From assembly GCF_003334305.1 (NCBI RefSeq), contig NZ_QOWS01000009.1: 64,000 bases of DNA. One strand, given 5' to 3'. Below the pieces are notes generated by a model. The model was not told the origin of the DNA, ran no database searches, and saw only the letters and a list, made by a program, of their open reading frames with translations. Source of the DNA: Escherichia coli. Lineage in GTDB: Bacteria; Pseudomonadota; Gammaproteobacteria; Enterobacterales; Enterobacteriaceae. Within the stretch, counting starts at the first letter, position 1; the number at the start of each line of letters is the position of its first letter. The translations under genes were made by a program, and so were the position numbers. This document shows, in pieces, positions 5,150 to 39,049 of this stretch.

Positions 5150-7560
<2,411 letters not shown>

Positions 7561-7851
7561 GGTTCTCTCCCTAAAAATCTGTCTGGCAGGGTAGCGATTT
7601 GTGCGTATTGTCACGATTGAGATTTTTTAAGGTGAGAGGAAATTGATAACTTGTAGTTATGTGAAATCGCTATTTTCTGTAGCGTAGATGCATTCTTCTG
7701 ACTTCTTGTCTGAGAAAATGCATAAGAAAAAATAGGTTAAAATTGAGGGGTGGAAAAGAAAGGTGCAATGTTTAGCCATTGTGTTCACCGCACCTGGACT
7801 TTGGCTTACGCATCGGGCATCTCAATCAACAAAAAGAGTTTTTAGTTTCTG

Positions 7852-8676
7852 CTATTTCTTCTCTGTAATTTTTACACTGTTTTCCAACTGCTTGATGCTG
7901 ACCTGCGGGGTCGGCAACTCCTCAGGCATGGTTCCGCCAAGTTCCTGAATGGTTTGCCTCACCTTGCTACCCACGTCAAAGTGTGTGGTATTAGCTTGCT
8001 GTTTTGAATTCACGCCATCCCGCTTGAGTTTTTCTTCTGTTTGGGTAGCTCGAAAGAGATTAGCCGCCAGTTCTGTTGAACCCATATGATCCAGGATCTT
8101 CTGACTCTTTTTCAGCCCCTTCAGTTGGTGGATGGCTTTCTGATCTAATCCACCATACAGCCCCTGGTAACCATGATTCTGAAATATGGCGAAATCAGTA
8201 GCTGTCGCTACCCCAGCTTGCTGTGCTGCCTCAACCAATTGTTTGTTATGTTCTTTCAACTCATTTCTCAGAAACAGACGCTTTTCGTCTTCACGAAGTT
8301 GCTTAAATGCTTCATCGTCAGCAAGCTCCTGCCGTCGGGTCTGGATAGCAAAATAAGTCTGCCCTGCCGCAATGACCGGTTTCGCAGGGTCGCCGTTTTG
8401 TACTACCAGGTAACAGGCATAGCGGGAGAGATGAACATCTTCAAGTTCTCGTTGAGCCCCTGAACCTAATACAACCATTTTGGTGGTTTCAACGAAATGG
8501 TCAGATGCAGCTTGATTGCTGGCTTCGCACGCTTGAGTCGCGCGGGCCAGTACCTTTTGAAAATTGCGCCAGTCCCGATAATCCAGTAACGGTGCCAATT
8601 CTCTAGCTGACCAAAATTCTTGCCCTTCAGTGCCATAATGCCGTATTTCTTCAAAAGGTTGATGATGTTCGTTCAT
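7852..8676 (-). CDS. dinD: DNA damage-inducible protein D
   Basis: ORF 7852-8688; start trimmed to MNEHHQPFEEIRHYGTEGQEFW (274 aa); LexA box upstream. Confidence 0.9.
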   Translation of the reverse strand: MNEHHQPFEEIRHYGTEGQEFWSARELAPLLDYRDWRNFQKVLARATQACEASNQAASDHFVETTKMVVLGSGAQRELEDVHLSRYACYLVVQNGDPAKPVIAAGQTYFAIQTRRQELADDEAFKQLREDEKRLFLRNELKEHNKQLVEAAQQAGVATATDFAIFQNHGYQGLYGGLDQKAIHQLKGLKKSQKILDHMGSTELAANLFRATQTEEKLKRDGVNSKQQANTTHFDVGSKVRQTIQELGGTMPEELPTPQVSIKQLENSVKITEKK

Positions 8677-29543: not shown

Positions 29544-30476
29544 TTATGCGTCGCGATTCAGCCAGGCCATGTATTCCGTTACACCTTCAGCAACGGTTTT
29601 GAACGGTTTGTCGTAACCCGCCGCGCGCAGATTTGTCAGATCTGCCTGAGTGAACGCCTGGTAGCGGCCTTTCAGCTTATCCGGGAACGGAATGTATTCG
29701 ATCTGGCCTTTCTTGTGATAAGCCAGCGTAGCATCTGCTACTGCCTGGAAGGATTCTGCACGACCGGTGCCGAGGTTGAAGATACCGGAAACGCCATTTT
29801 CCAGGAACCACAGGTTTACATCTGCCACGTCGCCCACATAGACGAAGTCGCGTTTGAAGTTCTCGCTACCTTCAAACAGCTTCGGTGATTCACCGTTGTT
29901 AAGCTGAGTGTTGAGATGGAACGCGACGCTCGCCATGCTGCCTTTATGGCCTTCACGCGGTCCATAAACGTTGAAATAACGGAAGCCAACAATCTGCGAG
30001 TTCGCTTCAGGCAGGATTTGGCGAACATATTCATCAAACAGGAATTTTGAGTAACCGTAGACGTTCAACGGTTTTTCGTACTCGCGGGATTCAATAAAGT
30101 CGGAGGTGCGTCCGCCGTAGGTGGCTGCGGAAGAAGCGTACAGGAACGGGATTTCGCGCTCCAGGCAGTAGTGCAGCAGCTCCTTGGAGTATTGATAGTT
30201 GTTATCCATCATATACTTGCCGTCCCACTCGGTGGTGGAAGAGCATGCGCCTTCGTGGAAAATCGCTTCGACATCGCCGAACTCTTCGCCAGCCATAATC
30301 TGGATCAGGAAGTCTTCCTTATCCATATAGTCCGCGATATCCAGATCCACCAGGTTCACAAACTTGGTGCCGTCTTTCAGGTTGTCCACCACCAGAATAT
30401 CGGTGATGCCTTTATCATTCAGGGCCTTAACGATGTTGCTGCCGATAAAGCCCGCGCCGCCGGTAACGATGATCAT
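29544..30476 (-). CDS. hldD: ADP-L-glycero-D-manno-heptose 6-epimerase
   Basis: 310-aa [26 protein letters not shown]... (Rossmann fold). Confidence 0.96.
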
Positions 30477-30689
30477 AACTGTAACCTTCGAATTATGGAG
30501 TCAGAGACAATCTCAGACACGAATACTTCTATCATATCACTACACGGCGTTGGCTTCAGCCATTCGCCAAAAGTGAGATTGATGGACGTTATTTATCCTG
30601 AATTTTGCAGAAGTGTTAACGCGTCATCTCGTCGCGACCTATAAGTTTGGGTAATATGTGCTGGAATTTGCCCTGTCTGGAGAATCGCA

Positions 30690-31886
30690 ATGCGTGGAGA
30701 ATTTTATCAGCAGTTAACCAACGATCTGGAAACCGCACGGGCGGAAGGGTTGTTTAAAGAAGAGCGCATTATTACGTCTGCGCAGCAAGCAGATATCACT
30801 GTGGCTGATGGAAGCCACGTCATTAACTTTTGTGCCAACAACTATCTCGGGCTGGCGAATCATCCGGATCTGATTGCGGCAGCAAAGGCGGGAATGGATT
30901 CTCACGGTTTCGGCATGGCTTCGGTGCGTTTTATTTGCGGCACTCAGGACAGCCATAAAGAGCTTGAACAAAAACTGGCGGCATTCCTGGGGATGGAAGA
31001 TGCGATTCTCTACTCTTCCTGCTTTGATGCTAACGGTGGACTGTTTGAAACGCTGCTGGGTGCGGAAGACGCCATTATCTCCGACGCACTGAACCACGCG
31101 TCTATTATTGATGGTGTGCGTCTGTGCAAAGCTAAACGCTATCGCTATGCCAACAACGATATGCAGGAGCTGGAAGCACGTCTGAAAGAAGCGCGTGAAG
31201 CCGGTGCGCGTCATGTGCTGATTGCCACCGATGGTGTGTTCTCAATGGACGGCGTGATTGCCAACCTGAAAGGCGTTTGCGATCTGGCAGATAAATACGA
31301 TGCCCTGGTGATGGTGGATGACTCCCACGCGGTCGGTTTTGTCGGTGAAAATGGTCGTGGTTCCCATGAATACTGCGATGTGATGGGCCGGGTCGATATT
31401 ATCACCGGTACGCTTGGTAAAGCGCTGGGCGGGGCTTCTGGTGGTTATACCGCGGCGCGCAAAGAGGTGGTTGAGTGGCTGCGCCAGCGTTCTCGTCCGT
31501 ACCTGTTCTCCAACTCGCTGGCACCGGCCATTGTTGCCGCGTCCATCAAAGTACTGGAGATGGTCGAAGCGGGCAGCGAACTGCGTGACCGTCTGTGGGC
31601 GAACGCGCGCCAGTTCCGTGAGCAAATGTCGGCGGCGGGCTTTACCCTGGCGGGAGCCGATCATGCCATTATTCCGGTCATGCTTGGCGATGCAGTAGTG
31701 GCGCAGAAATTTGCCCGTGAGCTGCAAAAAGAGGGCATTTACGTCACCGGTTTCTTCTATCCGGTCGTTCCGAAAGGTCAGGCGCGTATTCGTACCCAGA
31801 TGTCTGCGGCGCATACCCCTGAGCAAATTACGCGTGCAGTAGAAGCATTCACGCGTATTGGTAAACAACTGGGCGTTATCGCCTGA
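30690..31886 (+). CDS. kbl: 2-amino-3-ketobutyrate CoA ligase
   Basis: 398-aa PLP-dependent enzyme. Confidence 0.96.
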
Positions 31887-31895
31887 GGATGTGAG

Positions 31896-32921
31896 ATGAA
31901 AGCGTTATCCAAACTGAAAGCGGAAGAGGGCATCTGGATGACCGACGTTCCTGTACCGGAACTCGGGCATAACGATCTGCTGATTAAAATCCGTAAAACA
32001 GCCATCTGCGGGACTGACGTTCACATCTATAACTGGGATGAGTGGTCGCAAAAAACCATCCCGGTGCCGATGGTCGTAGGCCATGAATATGTCGGTGAAG
32101 TGGTAGGTATTGGTCAGGAAGTGAAAGGCTTCAAAATCGGCGATCGCGTTTCTGGCGAAGGCCATATCACCTGCGGTCACTGTCGCAACTGTCGTGGCGG
32201 TCGTACCCATCTGTGCCGCAACACCATTGGTGTCGGTGTTAACCGTCCGGGCTGCTTCGCCGAATATCTGGTGATTCCGGCGTTCAACGCTTTCAAAATC
32301 CCCGACAATATCTCCGACGACCTGGCTTCCATTTTTGATCCCTTCGGTAACGCCGTGCATACCGCGCTGTCGTTCGATCTGGTGGGCGAAGATGTGCTGG
32401 TTTCTGGTGCAGGTCCGATAGGTATTATGGCTGCGGCGGTGGCGAAACACGTTGGTGCACGCAATGTGGTGATCACCGATGTTAACGAATACCGCCTTGA
32501 GCTGGCGCGCAAAATGGGTATCACCCGTGCGGTCAACGTCGCTAAAGAAAACCTTAATGATGTGATGGCAGAACTGGGCATGACCGAAGGCTTTGATGTC
32601 GGTCTGGAAATGTCCGGTGCGCCGCCAGCGTTTCGTACCATGCTCGACACCATGAACCACGGCGGTCGCATTGCGATGCTGGGTATTCCACCGTCCGATA
32701 TGTCTATCGACTGGACCAAAGTAATCTTTAAAGGCTTGTTCATTAAAGGTATTTACGGTCGTGAGATGTTTGAAACCTGGTACAAGATGGCGGCGCTGAT
32801 TCAGTCAGGTCTGGATCTCTCGCCGATCATTACCCATCGTTTCTCTATCGATGATTTCCAGAAGGGCTTTGACGCTATGCGTTCGGGCCAGTCCGGGAAA
32901 GTAATTCTGAGTTGGGATTAA
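31896..32921 (+). CDS. tdh: L-threonine 3-dehydrogenase
   Basis: 341-aa zinc-dependent ADH-family enzyme. Confidence 0.96.
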
Positions 32922-32928
32922 CACGAAC

Positions 32929-32952
32929 AAGGGCTGGTATTCCAGCCCTTTT
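32929..32952 (+). terminator. rho-independent terminator after tdh
   Basis: GGGCTGG-TATT-CCAGCCC hairpin followed by TTTTG. Confidence 0.8.
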
Positions 32953-33159
32953 GCCTGAGGATAATCCGTTAAATATGTAAAATCCTGTCAGTGTAATAAA
33001 GATATCGTAATTGCGCTGATCTCTTATATAGCTGCTCTCATTATCTCTCTACCCTGAAGTGACTCTCTCACCTGTAAAAATAATATCTCACAGGCTTAAT
33101 AGTTTCTTAATACAAAGCCTGTAAAACGTCAGGATAACTTCAGAGGTCGTCGGTAATTT

Positions 33160-34194
33160 ATGATGAACAGCACCAATAAACTTAGTGTTATTATTCCGTT
33201 ATATAATGCGGGCGATGATTTCCGCACTTGTATGGAATCTTTAATTACGCAAACCTGGACTGCTCTGGAAATCATTATTATTAACGATGGTTCAACGGAT
33301 AATTCTGTTGAAATAGCAAAGCATTACGCAGAAAACTATCCGCACGTTCGTTTGTTGCATCAGGCGAATGCTGGCGCATCGGTAGCGCGTAATCGTGGGA
33401 TCGAGGTGGCGACGGGCAAATATGTCGCTTTTGTCGATGCTGACGATGAGGTCTATCCCACCATGTACGAAACGCTGATGACCATGGCGTTAGAGGATGA
33501 CCTCGACGTGGCGCAGTGCAACGCTGACTGGTGTTTTCGTGAAACGGGAGAAACCTGGCAATCCATCCCCAGCGATCGCCTTCGCTCAACCGGCGTATTA
33601 ACCGGCCCGGACTGGCTGCGGATGGGGCTTTCTTCGCGCCGTTGGACTCACGTTGTCTGGATGGGGGTTTATCGCCGTGATGTTATTGTTAAAAATAACA
33701 TTAAATTTATTGCCGGATTACATCATCAGGATATTGTCTGGACAACAGAATTCATGTTTAACGCGCTGCGTGCGCGATATACCGAGCAATCATTATATAA
33801 ATATTATCTGCATAATACGTCAGTGAGTCGGTTGCATAGACAAGGGAATAAAAACCTTAATTATCAACGTCACTATATTAAGATTACCCGCCTGCTGGAG
33901 AAATTAAATCGAAATTATGCCGACAAAATTACGATTTATCCGGAATTTCATCAGCAAATAACTTACGAAGCATTGCGTGTTTGCCATGCGGTGCGCAAAG
34001 AGCCGGATATTCTTACCCGCCAACGGATGATTGCCGAGATATTTACTTCCGGTATGTATAAGCGCCTGATTACCAATGTGCGCAGCGTGAAGGTCGGTTA
34101 CCAGGCGTTACTGTGGTCTTTCCGCTTATGGCAATGGCGCGACAAAACGCGGTCGCACCATCGCATTACGCGTAGCGCCTTTAATTTGCGCTAG
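33160..34194 (+). CDS. waaH: GT2 glycosyltransferase WaaH (YibD)
   Basis: 344-aa GT2 (SVIIPLYNAGDD..., VDADDE). Confidence 0.92.
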   Translation: MMNSTNKLSVIIPLYNAGDDFRTCMESLITQTWTALEIIIINDGSTDNSVEIAKHYAENYPHVRLLHQANAGASVARNRGIEVATGKYVAFVDADDEVYPTMYETLMTMALEDDLDVAQCNADWCFRETGETWQSIPSDRLRSTGVLTGPDWLRMGLSSRRWTHVVWMGVYRRDVIVKNNIKFIAGLHHQDIVWTTEFMFNALRARYTEQSLYKYYLHNTSVSRLHRQGNKNLNYQRHYIKITRLLEKLNRNYADKITIYPEFHQQITYEALRVCHAVRKEPDILTRQRMIAEIFTSGMYKRLITNVRSVKVGYQALLWSFRLWQWRDKTRSHHRITRSAFNLR

Positions 34195-35140
34195 CGTTAA
34201 ACTTCGCCGCTTCGGGCTGTTTGCCCCAGCCTTGCCACTGATGCTGGAAGTAAACGATCAGCGTGCTCTGGCTGATGCTTTCGCTTAATACTTCAAAGAA
34301 GCGATTAGCATAAACAGGTTCTATCGGTTTCTTCGGTTTGCACAGCTTCACGCCACGGAACGGATTACGCGGTGCATCAGGCACAGCGTTTTTCGGCGGT
34401 GTAGAAGTATCAACCTGCGGTTCATTCAGCAAGCTGCTGGCTTTCACCAGCGTAATGTCTGGCGGCAGGTTATAAACCATCTGTTGTAGCACGCGTACCG
34501 TTGAAGGGTGAGGATGCCCAATGGCAATGGTTGAACCGTTGCGACGCGCCAGATCAATTGCGCGATTAAATTGCACACGGATGTCCGCTTCGTTCTGCGA
34601 ATCGTCGAGGAACACCTTCCGTTTGATCACCTTCACGCCAGTACCTTGCGCGGCGCGCATCGCCTGGGTATTACCGATGGTTACGCTGTCGAGGAAGTAA
34701 AGATTGTAACGCTCCAGTGCCTGCATCACTTTCTGCATACCAAACAGGTTAGAGGTCATCTTGCTACCCATGTGGTTGTTGATCCCCACGGCATAGGGCA
34801 CGTTATTGACCGCACTACGAATAATGCGCTCAATTTCGTCGCTGCTCATCTCCGGGCGCAGCGTATTTTTCTCCAGCGGCTGTTTACTCAGTGGTGCCAT
34901 CGGGAGATGAATCAACACTTCGTGCCCGCTGTTATGCGCTTTGGTCGCCATCTCTCTGGCGTGCGGTGAATCGGGTAATACAGCGACGGAGATAGCGGAG
35001 GGCATCGCCAGCACCTGGTTTTCGTTGTGCGGGCGATACCCAAAATCATCAATGACGATGGCAAGTTTGCCAGCAAGTACGGGGGAGGAGAGCGCCAACA
35101 GAGCGGCAAATGCAAGAACGTTACGACGAAATGGAAACAA
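34181..35140 (-). CDS. yibQ: divergent polysaccharide deacetylase family protein YibQ
   Basis: 319-aa ORF with signal peptide; 3' end overlaps waaH 3' end by 14 nt (convergent). Confidence 0.9.
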   Translation of the reverse strand: MFPFRRNVLAFAALLALSSPVLAGKLAIVIDDFGYRPHNENQVLAMPSAISVAVLPDSPHAREMATKAHNSGHEVLIHLPMAPLSKQPLEKNTLRPEMSSDEIERIIRSAVNNVPYAVGINNHMGSKMTSNLFGMQKVMQALERYNLYFLDSVTIGNTQAMRAAQGTGVKVIKRKVFLDDSQNEADIRVQFNRAIDLARRNGSTIAIGHPHPSTVRVLQQMVYNLPPDITLVKASSLLNEPQVDTSTPPKNAVPDAPRNPFRGVKLCKPKKPIEPVYANRFFEVLSESISQSTLIVYFQHQWQGWGKQPEAAKFNASAN

Positions 35141-35143
35141 AAC

Positions 35144-36403
35144 TTATCTTCCCAACCACGGCTGTGGATTGACCGCCTGACCCTGGCGGCGAATTTCGAA
35201 ATAGAGTGAAGGCCGACCCTGACCGCCACTGCTGCCCACCAGTGCAATTGGCTGGCCCGCGCGAACCTGCGAACCAACGCTCACCAGTGCGCTCTGATTA
35301 TAGCCGTAAAGACTCATGTCGCCTTTACCGTGCTCAACCACCACCACCAGACCGTAACCTTGCAGCCAGTCAGCCAGAATCACCCGACCGTCGGCAATCG
35401 CTTTAACTTCAGTACCTTCAGAGGCACCGATAACCATTCCTTTCCAGCGTAGTTCGCCCTGTAGCTGTTCACCATAGCGATGCAGCGTCGGCCCGCGAAC
35501 CGGCCAGAATGCCTGACCACGCGGCGCACCCAGGCCACCAGTTCGGGACATCAGCGATTTTTCGCTTTCGGTCGGTTTATAGGTGGTGCCTTTGCGCGTC
35601 GCTTCTTTCTGGCGGTCGCGAACCGCCTGGGCCTCACGCGCTTCTCGTTCAGCACGCGCTTTCGCCGCGGCTTCCGCACGGGCAATGCTGTTACGCAGAC
35701 GGGATTCGTTGGCACGCAGTTCACTTAGCTGCTGCTGACCTTGCTGGATGGAAGATTCCAGCCCCGCCAGCGTCTTTTTACGCTCGTTCAGAGCCTGAGT
35801 CAGTTTCGCCTGTTGGGCGCGCTGTTCATATAACAGCGTTTGTTGCTCGCTTTGTTTCTCTTCCAGTTCAGCACGCTGCATGGCGACTTCTTCACGCGTT
35901 TGCTTCAACTGGGCAATGGTTTCTTGTCGCGCCTGGTTGAGATAGCCGAAATAAGCCTGTAAACGCTGTCCACGCTGGCTTTCTTCACCGCTGAGAATTA
36001 GCTGAATACCGGTATGCTCGCCCTGACGGAATGCGGCATCCAGTTGCGCGGCGAGGCTGCGCTCCTGGGCGGCTTTTTGCTGCTCCAGTTTGGCAATCGA
36101 CGCGTTCATCTCATCAATCTGTTTATTGAGTTGATTGAGCGTGTTTTGCGTTTCGCGCAGCTTACGGGTGGCTTCAGAGATCGCTTCTTCCTGCTTTTTC
36201 AATTGTGCGAGCAGGCTTGCGCGTTGTTGTTGCTTTTGGCGTACCGCGCGCTCTTTTGCGGCGATATCGGCCTGAATAGATTTGAGTTGGTCACGCTCAT
36301 CCGCGTGGGCGGAAAAGGCGCACAACAATACGCCAGCGCTAAGAACGCTGGCGTAGATGATGGGCCTGATTGCAAACCTGCGCGGTTTCACGGCCCGTGT
36401 CAT
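35144..36403 (-). CDS. envC: murein hydrolase activator EnvC
   Basis: ORF 35144-36427; start trimmed to MTRAVKPRRFAIRP (419 aa); long coiled coil plus C-terminal LytM domain. Confidence 0.92.
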   Translation of the reverse strand: MTRAVKPRRFAIRPIIYASVLSAGVLLCAFSAHADERDQLKSIQADIAAKERAVRQKQQQRASLLAQLKKQEEAISEATRKLRETQNTLNQLNKQIDEMNASIAKLEQQKAAQERSLAAQLDAAFRQGEHTGIQLILSGEESQRGQRLQAYFGYLNQARQETIAQLKQTREEVAMQRAELEEKQSEQQTLLYEQRAQQAKLTQALNERKKTLAGLESSIQQGQQQLSELRANESRLRNSIARAEAAAKARAEREAREAQAVRDRQKEATRKGTTYKPTESEKSLMSRTGGLGAPRGQAFWPVRGPTLHRYGEQLQGELRWKGMVIGASEGTEVKAIADGRVILADWLQGYGLVVVVEHGKGDMSLYGYNQSALVSVGSQVRAGQPIALVGSSGGQGRPSLYFEIRRQGQAVNPQPWLGR

Positions 36404-36436
36404 GGTATTAATCGCCTTTCCCCTCATGGGGAGGGA

Positions 36437-37981
36437 TTATTCCACGATGAACAGCGGCTTACCAGTCATCTCTTGCGGGATTTCCATACCCATCAGCGAC
36501 AACATGGTCGGCGCGATGTCAGAAAGTTTGCCGCCTTCAACCGCTTTCACGTTCTTATCACCAACATAAATCAGCGGAACTGGCAGGTTGGTGTGTGCCG
36601 TGTGTGCCTGACCCGTTGCCGGATCGCGCATCTGTTCAGCGTTACCGTGGTCAGCGGTGATCAGCAGTTGTCCACCCACGGACTCAACCGCTTTCGCGAC
36701 TTCTTCCACGCAGTGATCCAGTGCTTCAACCGCTTTAACCGCCGCTTCCATCACCCCGGTGTGACCTACCATGTCGCCGTTCGGATAGTTACAGATAATG
36801 GTGTCGTATTTGCCGCTCTTGATGGCCGCAACCAGTTTTTCGGTCAGCTCTGCGGAGCTCATTTCCGGTTGCAGATCGTAGGTAGCCACTTTCGGTGAGT
36901 TGATCAGAATGCGATCTTCGCCTTTGAACGACTCTTCTACGCCACCGTTGAAGAAGAAAGTAACGTGGGCATATTTTTCGGTTTCGGAAATACGCAACTG
37001 AGTTTTGTCGTTTTTCGCCATCCACTCGCCGAAGGTGTTAACCAGGGAAGCGGGTGGGTAAGCAACCGCAGTTTTGATGTCAGCGGCGTATTCGGTCAGC
37101 ATCACGAAATCGACGTTAACCACTTTCTTACGCGCGAAGCCATCGAAATCAGCGTTCACGAATGCACGAGTGATTTCACGCGCGCGGTCAGCACGGAAGT
37201 TCATGAAAATCAGCGCATCGCCGTCTTCCATTGCCGCATCTGGCTGACCTTCTGCACGAATAACGGTCGCTTTCACGAACTCGTCGTTTTCGTCGCGAGC
37301 ATAAGCTGCCTGCAAACCAGCAACGGCAGTATCGGCCTGGAACTCACCCTGCGCCAGAGTCAGCAGGTCATAGGCTTTTTCAACGCGATCCCAACGGTTA
37401 TCGCGGTCCATCGCGTAGTAACGACCAATGATGGACGCTACGCGGCCTTTACCCAGCGCAGCAAATTTCTCTTCAAATTTTTTCAGCGAGGATTCAGCAC
37501 TGCGCGGCGGGGTGTCGCGACCGTCAAGGAATGCGTGCAGGTAGATTTTTTCTGCGCCGCGTTCAGCTGCCAGTTCTACCATCGCCATGATGTGATCTTC
37601 GTGGCTGTGTACGCCGCCTGCGGAGAGCAGACCCATAATGTGTACTGCTTTACCTGCGTTTTTCGCTTTATCTACCGCGCCAGTCAGCACTGGATTAGCA
37701 AAGAAAGCGCGATCTTTGATTTCAACGTCCAGACGAGTCAGGTCCTGATACACGATGCGGCCGGCACCCAGGTTAACGTGGCCTACTTCGGAGTTACCCA
37801 TCTGACGGTCAGGCAGACCGACTTCCAGACCGGAAGCGTCGATCAGGGTATGCGGACGATTGGCCCACAGTGCATCCATTACCGGGGTTTTAGCACTAAA
37901 AATGGCGTTATCCTGCTGTTCTTCGCGATAGCCATAGCCATCCAGAATCACCAGTACCATAGGTTTTTTAGAAACCGACAT
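36437..37981 (-). CDS. gpmM: 2,3-bisphosphoglycerate-independent phosphoglycerate mutase
   Basis: ORF 36437-38125; start trimmed to [20 protein letters not shown] (514 aa). Confidence 0.93.
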
Positions 37982-38225
37982 TGCGACAACCTCATACTCA
38001 AGAGTCAAAATTTGCGTAATTTTACTACAGCTGAATCGATAAAATAGCCTCTGAAGATCAAAATATACGACCGCTCGCGGCAAGCCGATGCCAGATTTAC
38101 GCTTTTTTTTCGTCGCGCCCCGCAAAATTGCATTCCAGTTAACGCGCTGGCTGTATTTGCCGCACCGCGCAGGTATACTCCTTTCCTGGTTTTTTTAATC
38201 ACTACGTCGGGAGTTGTTACCCCCC

Positions 38226-38657
38226 ATGCAAGAAATTATGCAATTTGTTGGCCGTCATCCCATACTGAGTATCGCCTGGATCGCGTTACTGGTGGCGGTT
38301 CTTGTGACTACGTTTAAGAGCCTGACCTCGAAAGTGAAGGTGATTAGTCGTGGTGAAGCTACGCGTCTGATCAACAAAGAAGACGCTGTGGTTGTGGATT
38401 TACGTCAGCGTGATGACTTCCGTAAAGGCCATATCGCAGGTTCTATCAATCTGTTGCCGAGCGAAATCAAAGCCAACAATGTTGGTGAGCTTGAGAAGCA
38501 CAAAGACAAACCGGTTATCGTGGTAGACGGTTCTGGCCTGCAGTGCCAGGAGCCTGCAAATGCGCTGACGAAAGCTGGTTTTGCGCAAGTATTCGTGCTG
38601 AAAGAGGGCGTCGCTGGCTGGGCTGGCGAAAACTTGCCTTTGGTGCGCGGCAAATAA
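38226..38657 (+). CDS. yibN: rhodanese-domain inner membrane protein YibN
   Basis: ORF 38214-38657; start trimmed to [25 protein letters not shown] (143 aa). Confidence 0.9.
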
Positions 38658-38797
38658 TTTACCTGTCGTCTTTCATGATGCAGGCCGTTAGCTGCAATTA
38701 GGCCCCCAGCGACTTATTGTTATAAGCTTCTGGGGACACTCCATTTTGCTGCCGCCCTGCAACATGAAATTTCAGGGTAAAAAACAGGAGCTAATTT

Positions 38798-39049
38798 ATG
38801 GCCAATGTTGAAATCTATACTAAAGAAACCTGCCCGTATTGCCATCGTGCAAAAGCACTGCTGAGCAGCAAGGGCGTGAGTTTCCAGGAGTTGCCGATCG
38901 ATGGCAATGCCGCCAAGCGTGAAGAGATGATCAAACGCAGCGGTCGCACCACGGTTCCCCAGATTTTTATTGACGCACAGCACATTGGCGGCTGTGATGA
39001 CTTGTATGCATTGGATGCACGTGGTGGACTGGATCCCCTGCTGAAATAA
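38798..39049 (+). CDS. grxC: glutaredoxin 3
   Basis: 83-aa ORF with CPYC active site. Confidence 0.96.

Follow-up and report, generated by a model that had tools for sequence, protein, structure and literature searches.

The waaH and yibQ genes and their shared ends

We analysed a 64,000-nt stretch of Escherichia coli DNA (the window; contig NZ_QOWS01000009.1 of assembly GCF_003334305.1) in which two convergent genes, waaH and yibQ, have their last 14 nt in common, as read from the sequence and from the list of open reading frames (Table 1). The waaH stop codon, TAG at 34192-34194, lies inside yibQ, and the yibQ stop codon, TAA as the reverse complement of 34181-34183, lies inside waaH. The coordinates place codon position 1 of one gene opposite position 1 of the other and position 2 opposite position 3, an arrangement known as phase 123:132 and reported as the most frequent phase, with 49% of convergent overlaps of at least 5 nt (Lillo & Krakauer 2007, PMC2174442). 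RefSeq gives identical ends for both genes in an identical strain, MC1061 and MG1655, with the MG1655 coordinates being 3788101-3789060 (+) for yibQ and 3789047-3790081 (−) for waaH. The 14-nt convergent overlap pointed out by an earlier sequence-only reading of this DNA was thus borne out by the sequence, the list of open reading frames and the matching RefSeq ends.

Table 1. Positions of the genes, sequence features and mapped RNA features at the waaH-yibQ junction (window coordinates).
Feature	Position	Strand	Description and source
waaH (yibD) CDS	33160-34194	+	344 aa, UDP-glucuronate:LPS(HepIII) glycosyltransferase; ORF list, RefSeq, NCBIfam, Pfam
yibQ (sddA) CDS	34181-35140	−	319 aa, deacetylase acting in the periplasm on denuded glycan strands; stands at the end of the envC-yibQ operon
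envC	35144-36403	−	Upstream operon partner, transcription continues through yibQ; RefSeq and bioRxiv 10.1101/2025.02.18.638797
Shared coding stretch	34181-34194	both	TTAATTTGCGCTAG; encodes WaaH ..(F)NLR-stop and YibQ ..(A)SAN-stop
Variable YibQ tail	34184-34225	−	14 residues, GKQPEAAKFNASAN, past the conserved WQGW motif; creates the overlap
WaaH codons 341-342	34180-34185	+	TTT AAT (F-N), hold the yibQ stop; codon table
O157:H7 change site	34141-34143	+	GAC AAA ACG to GAA AAA AAC G (A7 run); alignment and translation
yibQ-sense 13-bp hairpin	34131-34164	−	17-50 nt past the yibQ stop; GCGAUGGUGCGAC / GUCGCGCCAUUGC, two G-U pairs
envC-yibQ read-through, antisense to the 3′ third of waaH	33857-34180	−	Ends at the published Rho region, approximately 324 nt beyond the stop of yibQ
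RNase III-cut 21-nt sense/antisense duplex	34953-34973	−	Inside yibQ, >690 nt past the waaH stop; PMC7373196 Table S3, mapped to the window

Both waaH and yibQ are genuine protein-coding genes. WaaH scores 635 bits against the NCBIfam equivalog NF007482 (cut-off 423), with the profile spanning residues 1-334 and the last ten residues lying outside the model, and a Pfam GT2 domain covers residues 9-137. In YibQ, Pfam PF04748 covers residues 28-238 (E = 6e-76). YibQ has been characterized as SddA, a deacetylase that acts on denuded glycan strands in the periplasm and is co-transcribed with envC; residues 239-319 form a flexible tail that catalysis does not require and that the protease Prc targets, and cell separation is sensitive to the SddA:EnvC ratio (bioRxiv 10.1101/2025.02.18.638797).

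The locus was found in 5,425 of 5,426 complete E. coli genomes, and a 140-nt probe for the junction was matched at 95% identity or more in 5,423 of them. Among the six convergent junctions in the window this is the sole overlap, the others having gaps of 36, 38, 35, 61 and 11 nt. Genome-wide it is not rare, since 58 convergent overlaps have been reported for E. coli (Lillo & Krakauer, PMC2174442). The waaH-yibQ overlap is real, ordinary and already present in public E. coli annotation.

Junction states across genera and the variable YibQ tail

Scanning for WaaH in one genome per species gave 54 loci, and yibQ was the convergent neighbour in 37 loci, with the window and two further E. coli records counted in; in Pantoea, Rahnella and Erwinia waaH lies away from yibQ. 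Junction states were computed from the first in-frame stop of each gene and are given here in nt, negative for an overlap and positive for a gap. The −14 state was found at 20 of the 37 loci and in at least eight genera, covering Escherichia (E. albertii as well), several Citrobacter, Salmonella arizonae and diarizonae, Leclercia, Cedecea, Silvania and an Enterobacter sp. Shorter overlaps of −4 were seen in Kluyvera (two loci) and UBA5654, and the C. freundii complex has a state of 0. Gaps were found in Kosakonia (+6), Superficieibacter (+10 and +14), Siccibacter (+44 and +50) and Pseudocitrobacter (+72 and +113). In Siccibacter (S. colletis and S. turicensis, the latter with the +50 gap) the space holds a bidirectional terminator, AAACGGCCCCGCCGGGCCGTTTTTTTTT, with a folding energy of −15 to −16 kcal/mol, and in Pseudocitrobacter it holds REP-like palindromes. 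The gene context of further YibQ proteins added C. koseri, also at −14, Trabulsiella at −4 with a different GT2 as the partner, Atlantibacter with a gap of 0, and Enterobacter wuhouensis at +33 with another glycosyltransferase as the partner. Taken with the junction states, these four contexts indicate that yibQ ends in a densely packed region, with LPS glycosyltransferase genes lying head-on to it.

The difference between these states is found in the end of YibQ. The conserved C-terminal block of all YibQ proteins ends in ...QHQWQGW, and what follows is 1-5 residues long in the non-overlapping loci and 12-14 residues long in the −14 group. The same division is seen in 120 clusters of YibQ proteins, in which the tail after WxGW has 1-8 residues in 78 and 12-14 residues in 41, with none at 9-11. 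Column identity in the tail is 0.42, as opposed to 0.73 in the preceding 80 columns. The last eight residues of WaaH, [RK]-x-A-[LFI]-N-L-x, have a column identity of 0.80, and the A and N are invariant. Superficieibacter (ending NRQK-stop, +10/+14) and UBA5654 (ending NRQKPTS-stop, −4) belong to one clade and differ by a small indel that deletes the yibQ stop and creates the overlap, a comparison which shows that such overlaps can form easily. From the distribution of junction states we infer that the direction of change was extension of YibQ and not truncation, with the YibQ reading frame having probably grown across what had been a short spacer and into waaH at its constrained end, and the tail being carried along as a passenger. 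As a separate observation, in Leclercia, Silvania and C. sedlakii the YibQ tail contains GGGGG...CCCCC hairpins that might be terminator relics; they come without U-tracts, and the conserved W-G codons account for part of their sequence.

The overlap also leaves a mark on the codons of waaH. Read on the opposite strand, bases 2 and 3 of WaaH codon 341 and base 1 of the invariant Asn codon form the yibQ stop, which therefore requires T or C at the end of codon 341. This codon is TTT, CTT, CTC or ATT in 20 of 20 loci of the −14 group and never CTG, CTA or TTR; two codons on, Leu343 freely uses CTG, CTA, TTG, TTA and CTT. The overlap is exactly 14 nt long even though WaaH identity across the genera is only 77-95%, and this could reflect selection for the arrangement itself. 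Loss of the yibQ stop would extend the protein by 3-5 codons in Escherichia and by 31-74 codons in most other genera, and since the extension would be so long in most genera, the fixed length can be explained by ordinary purifying selection on the yibQ stop.

Termination of the two transcripts

The sequence-only reading had further proposed that the overlap leaves no room for a terminator and that transcription from either side must read into the other gene. The first of these held up, as there is no intergenic space and no intrinsic terminator was found at the E. coli junction, either with a consensus scan or in a scan of all loci covering ~80 nt around either stop. A GC-rich hairpin with an A-tract on one side and a U-tract on the other, as present in Siccibacter, was not found at the E. 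coli junction, and an Rfam scan of window positions 30000-39000 gave no match at E ≤ 1. Each full-length mRNA covers the overlap because each stop codon lies at its far side, and for the same reason both transcripts could not end before the overlap and remain translatable.

Read-through was corroborated by published data on the yibQ strand and is presumed on the waaH strand. Adams et al. (2021, PMC7815308) mapped a Rho termination region on the yibQ strand at MG1655 3,789,384 (+) and classed it as antisense to waaH. Reads upstream and downstream of the region were 106 and 28 without bicyclomycin and 187 and 274 with it, which corresponds to a Rho score of 5.55 (p = 1.8e-15). The region corresponds to window position ~33857, an approximate position given that the comparison was made in 800-nt windows. 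The envC-yibQ transcript enters waaH and, according to these data, is terminated there by Rho; waaH transcripts presumably end likewise by Rho inside antisense yibQ. The base composition past the two stops is only mildly biased, with a C/G ratio of 1.29-1.32 from +26 to +150 past the yibQ stop and of 1.2 from +1 to +100 past the waaH stop. For the yibQ strand this amounts to ordinary Rho-dependent termination within the partner, as in most convergent overlaps.

Two hairpins inside the opposing coding sequences offer another explanation, in which they would be the true 3′-end determinants, acting as cryptic terminators or stabilisers. Such elements would have precedent, as ~20% of the genes in E. 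coli convergent overlaps (23 of 116) have a predicted Rho-independent terminator located in the partner gene (PMC2174442). The 13-bp yibQ-sense hairpin is stable (z = −2.28 for a 146-nt stretch) and stronger on the yibQ strand owing to its G-U pairs, related stems fold in most other genera, and on the folding predictions it is a possible 3′ stabiliser. It has no U-tract behind the stem, however, and covariation across 17 sequences was equal to that in shuffles (77.8% of cells paired vs. 77.4%), so we see no support for it as a selected structure and regard it as a thermodynamic feature of Escherichia only. On the waaH side, a hairpin with a T5 run lies ~190 nt past the stop (window ~34368-34393) and recurs at 180-195 nt in other loci, but RNAalifold on 31 loci gave −2.6 kcal/mol with no compensatory pairs, and the conservation of its sequence is that of the antisense of the YibQ peptide APRNPFRGVK. 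Considered as an embedded terminator, it was rejected as a conserved structure. In the Term-seq tables, which cover three conditions, none of them inducing waaH, no 3′ end is listed on either strand for yibQ, waaH or their vicinity (PMC7815308). On balance we think it unlikely that the embedded hairpins set the 3′ ends, and favour Rho-dependent termination inside the partner gene.

Possible antisense interference, meaning of the overlap and comparison with known systems

Since the two transcripts necessarily overlap, it is worth asking whether the junction is a regulatory device in which waaH transcription during phosphate starvation meets envC-yibQ transcription, and collision of RNA polymerases, or duplex formation with cleavage by RNase III, lowers SddA. 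Several observations are in keeping with this. In a published low-phosphate RNA-seq comparison of wild type with ΔphoB, waaH counts were 13872/11547 and 3032/2925, respectively (log2 2.1, ~4-fold), and were above those of envC, while envC itself trended down where waaH was higher (−0.4 log2, q = 0.19). In the O157:H7 strain EDL933 waaH was induced 80-fold in low phosphate (bioRxiv 10.1101/536201). RNase III-cut duplexes inside yibQ mean that RNA antisense to yibQ exists, and together with the yibQ-strand RNA antisense to waaH seen in the Rho data they indicate that sense and antisense transcripts co-occur in vivo. The exact overlap is kept in at least eight genera, and the SddA:EnvC ratio is important for cell separation.

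Weighed against this, the antisense interference suggested by the sequence-only reading found no support in the same RNA-seq data. At a ~4-fold difference in waaH, yibQ showed no detectable change, as it is missing from all rows up to q = 0.57 of the significance-sorted table, the change in envC was non-significant, and no reciprocal expression of waaH and yibQ/envC was seen between wild type and ΔphoB. The libraries were directional (ScriptSeq), with the strand-awareness of read counting unconfirmed, and waaH was substantially expressed in both strains; for that reason the data argue only against a strong steady-state effect on yibQ, and a modest or post-transcriptional one may exist. How directly PhoB acts on waaH differs between reports, with the wild type vs. 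ΔphoB study finding no PhoB ChIP-seq signal at waaH and concluding that control is indirect, and the O157:H7 study reporting PhoB binding at waaH by EMSA (bioRxiv 10.1101/536201). The RNase III-cut duplexes are over 690 nt away from the junction, and such reads arise from 87% of E. coli genes (PMC7373196). In related genera this gene pair is separated by a bidirectional terminator or by REP-like elements, and convergent transcripts can overlap whether or not their coding sequences do; since transcript overlap of hundreds of nt would be there with or without the 14 shared bases, the coding overlap itself adds little.

A natural allele also weighs against a regulatory role for the overlap. In O157:H7, WaaH is frameshifted to ...EKNAVAPSHYA followed by an early TAG at window 34173-34175, which leaves a gap of 5 nt between the stops of waaH and yibQ and no coding overlap. 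The allele abolishes only the coding overlap, and the transcript overlap remains. This exact allele is carried by 311 of the 5,426 complete E. coli genomes. RefSeq labels the gene a 'frameshifted' pseudogene, although only the last 17 residues are replaced. Deletion of waaH in EDL933 led to less biofilm and was complemented by a plasmid copy (bioRxiv 10.1101/536201). Since the gene is inducible and its deletion can be complemented, both the coding overlap and the last 17 residues of WaaH appear dispensable for the biofilm phenotype.

Taken together, we find it improbable that the overlap serves as a regulatory device. Its most specific form, in which the junction is a selected collision or duplex switch by which starvation-time waaH transcription truncates or destabilises the 3′ end of the envC-yibQ mRNA, lowers SddA relative to EnvC and so tunes amidase-driven separation of daughter cells during remodelling of the LPS core, seems to us very improbable. 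Finally, although many long convergent overlaps in databases are 3′-extension artefacts (PMC2478687), the notion that this one stems from faulty annotation (through an incorrect stop, a frameshift in the sequence or an open reading frame that is no gene) has practically no standing and is refuted by both stops being read straight from the sequence as the first in frame, by the identical sequence in thousands of complete genomes, by the experimental characterization of both proteins at full length, including an SddA construct of residues 24-319, and by an overlap of merely 14 nt being kept across genera.

The explanation we prefer, and hold with considerable confidence, is that the overlap is a genuine but passive tail-to-tail arrangement in which the YibQ extension is held by stop-codon selection. 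The functional part of YibQ/SddA would end at ...QHQWQGW. With no stop after this motif in the group of Escherichia, Salmonella and Citrobacter and in several further genera, the frame would simply continue for 12-14 poorly conserved residues until its first in-frame stop, which would be supplied opposite the conserved WaaH C-terminal codons [L/F/I]-N. The WaaH end would then be the constrained partner and the YibQ tail the passenger, with purifying selection on the yibQ stop keeping the arrangement and the pyrimidine-only third base of WaaH codon 341 as its likely trace. Because no terminator fits between the genes, each mRNA would run on, untranslated, as antisense RNA to the other gene; the published data show that the envC-yibQ transcript is stopped by Rho a few hundred nt inside waaH, and the waaH transcript would be stopped in the same way inside yibQ. 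The 14 shared bases themselves have no demonstrated regulatory role and appear dispensable.

As it stands the overlap is of little importance, being present in every E. coli annotation and belonging to a well-described class, but it does have practical consequences. Deleting all of waaH also removes the stop codon of yibQ and the last four codons before it, and deleting yibQ clips waaH in turn, so this mutual clipping should be considered when the phenotypes of Keio-type or cassette mutants in either gene are interpreted. The pseudogene label that RefSeq gives to O157:H7 waaH contrasts with an inducible gene and a complementable phenotype. The locus also illustrates, cleanly and on a small scale, how a convergent overlap originates and is afterwards maintained by a constraint on synonymous sites of the partner gene. 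If interference were true, it would link LPS remodelling in phosphate starvation to septal peptidoglycan processing.

Among known systems, excludons and cis-antisense regulation (reviewed in PMC7154746) share with this locus the overlap of neighbouring opposite-strand transcripts and, through the duplexes in yibQ, cleavage by RNase III. They differ in that waaH-yibQ shows no reciprocal expression in the available RNA-seq and is a convergent pair with a 3′ overlap, as opposed to a long antisense RNA over a whole operon. Bidirectional terminators between convergent genes (Ju et al. 2019; collision model, bioRxiv 10.1101/2022.10.23.513370) are matched by the Siccibacter pair, with an A-tract, GC hairpin and T-tract in its 44-50 nt gap, whereas E. 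coli waaH-yibQ has neither such an element nor room for one. A closer likeness is seen with the Rho-terminated read-through and antisense RNA of E. coli (Peters et al. 2012; Adams et al. 2021, PMC7815308), in which antisense-to-gene sites are the largest class of Rho termination regions (51.5%); the yibQ-strand RNA is likewise untranslated after its stop and has a bicyclomycin-sensitive end a few hundred nt on, although waaH-yibQ is documented in one direction only and at a site that is approximate, having been mapped with 800-nt windows. The conserved convergent overlapping pairs of prokaryotes (Rogozin et al. 2002; Lillo & Krakauer 2007, PMC2174442; Pallejà et al. 2008, PMC2478687) differ in nothing essential. 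These too are bona fide opposite-strand genes sharing their 3′ ends, with short overlaps in phase 123:132 that are found in several species and can be explained by stop-codon loss and 3′ extension. What waaH-yibQ adds is that one can say which side donated the extension (YibQ, with its tail) and which is the constrained one (WaaH, at its C-terminus), and that a natural allele, that of O157:H7, dissolves the overlap.

Transcription on the upstream side of waaH

On the upstream side, waaH is preceded by a tdh terminator hairpin (Table), which matches a strong published Term-seq 3′ end in MG1655, at 3,790,287 on the minus strand with a score of 45526 (PMC7815308). The tdh terminator shields waaH from kbl-tdh transcription. 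Within the gene, Adams et al. (PMC7815308) report a second Rho termination region, of class ‘internal waaH’, at MG1655 3,790,042 on the minus strand, which corresponds to window ~33199 on the plus strand and sits 39 nt inside the waaH ORF. Reads at this region were 95/20 without bicyclomycin (BCM) and 154/187 with BCM, with a Rho score of 5.77 and p = 7e-13 (PMC7815308). In rich medium, Rho seems to stop transcription of the waaH strand close to the start of the ORF, and early Rho termination could be one contribution to the silence of waaH outside phosphate starvation.

Elsewhere in the window, yibT and mtlR form another convergent junction that is too short for a terminator. The P4-like integrative element carries a DUF5906 primase-like gene, ash-family and antirepressor genes and a tyrosine integrase (7227-8486), and is missing from this position in K-12, as judged from the MG1655 gene order.

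Table. Features located in the window and in comparison loci (L-numbers)
Feature	Location	Strand	Remark
P4-like integrative element adjoining yicC	window 1-8486		gene annotation
tdh terminator hairpin, AAGGGCTGG.ATTCCAGCCCTT + T-run	window 32929-32954	+	matches published Term-seq 3′ end
yibT (+)/mtlR (-) convergent junction	window 53072-53084		gap only 11 nt
Canonical bidirectional intrinsic terminator, waaH-yibQ junction, Siccibacter	L031 1462-1505; L019 5036-5085
REP-like palindromes, e.g. GCCGGATGCGGCTACGCCTTATCCGGCCTAC, waaH-yibQ junction, Pseudocitrobacter	L016 and L032 gaps

Alleles and lesions of waaH

The waaH of O157:H7 carries an A7-run insertion (window 34141-34175; comparison locus L059, 1520-1556) that swaps only the last 17 residues, giving a WaaH of 338 aa. 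This allele is found in 311 of 5,426 genomes, and in O157:H7 the gene carries the RefSeq pseudogene label ‘frameshifted’. Since the O157:H7 gene is up 80-fold in low phosphate and its deletion phenotype can be complemented (bioRxiv 10.1101/536201), the pseudogene label is probably too harsh.

Recurrent lesions in waaH were also seen in individual strains with yibQ left intact. ETEC1748 has an internal waaH deletion of ~180 nt, and its leftover ORF extends 108 nt into yibQ; an IS1-associated deletion in strain G5 leaves only the final 114 nt of waaH; and the gene is interrupted by an IS1 insertion in Ecol_517.

The YibQ C-terminus and the yibQ-tdh interval

The C-terminal region of YibQ/SddA has been called disordered in the literature. 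In every genus examined, residues ~247-305 (window 34226-34400, minus strand) form a strongly conserved block, PRNPFRGVKLCKPK...PVYA.RFF.VLSESI.QSTL..YFQHQWQGW. The block looks like a functional module and not a mere linker, and is perhaps an interaction or membrane-binding motif. A 1.8 kb JGI metagenome contig encodes a predicted protein of 543 aa (P0002) in which YibQ, through WQGW, is fused to WaaH ~118-344 in one frame and on one strand; misassembly or an artefactual inversion is the likeliest source of the fusion.

The waaH-yibQ junction, with its terminators and palindromes in other genera (Table), is evolutionarily plastic. Across the yibQ downstream regions compared (L064-L067), the convergent glycosyltransferase genes between yibQ and tdh differ by genus, with the interval holding a waaH-like GT2, a 265-aa GT2 accompanied by a GT4, or a Caps_synth gene with GT2, Wzy_C and sulfatase genes. 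The yibQ-tdh interval acts as a small and variable islet for LPS modification.
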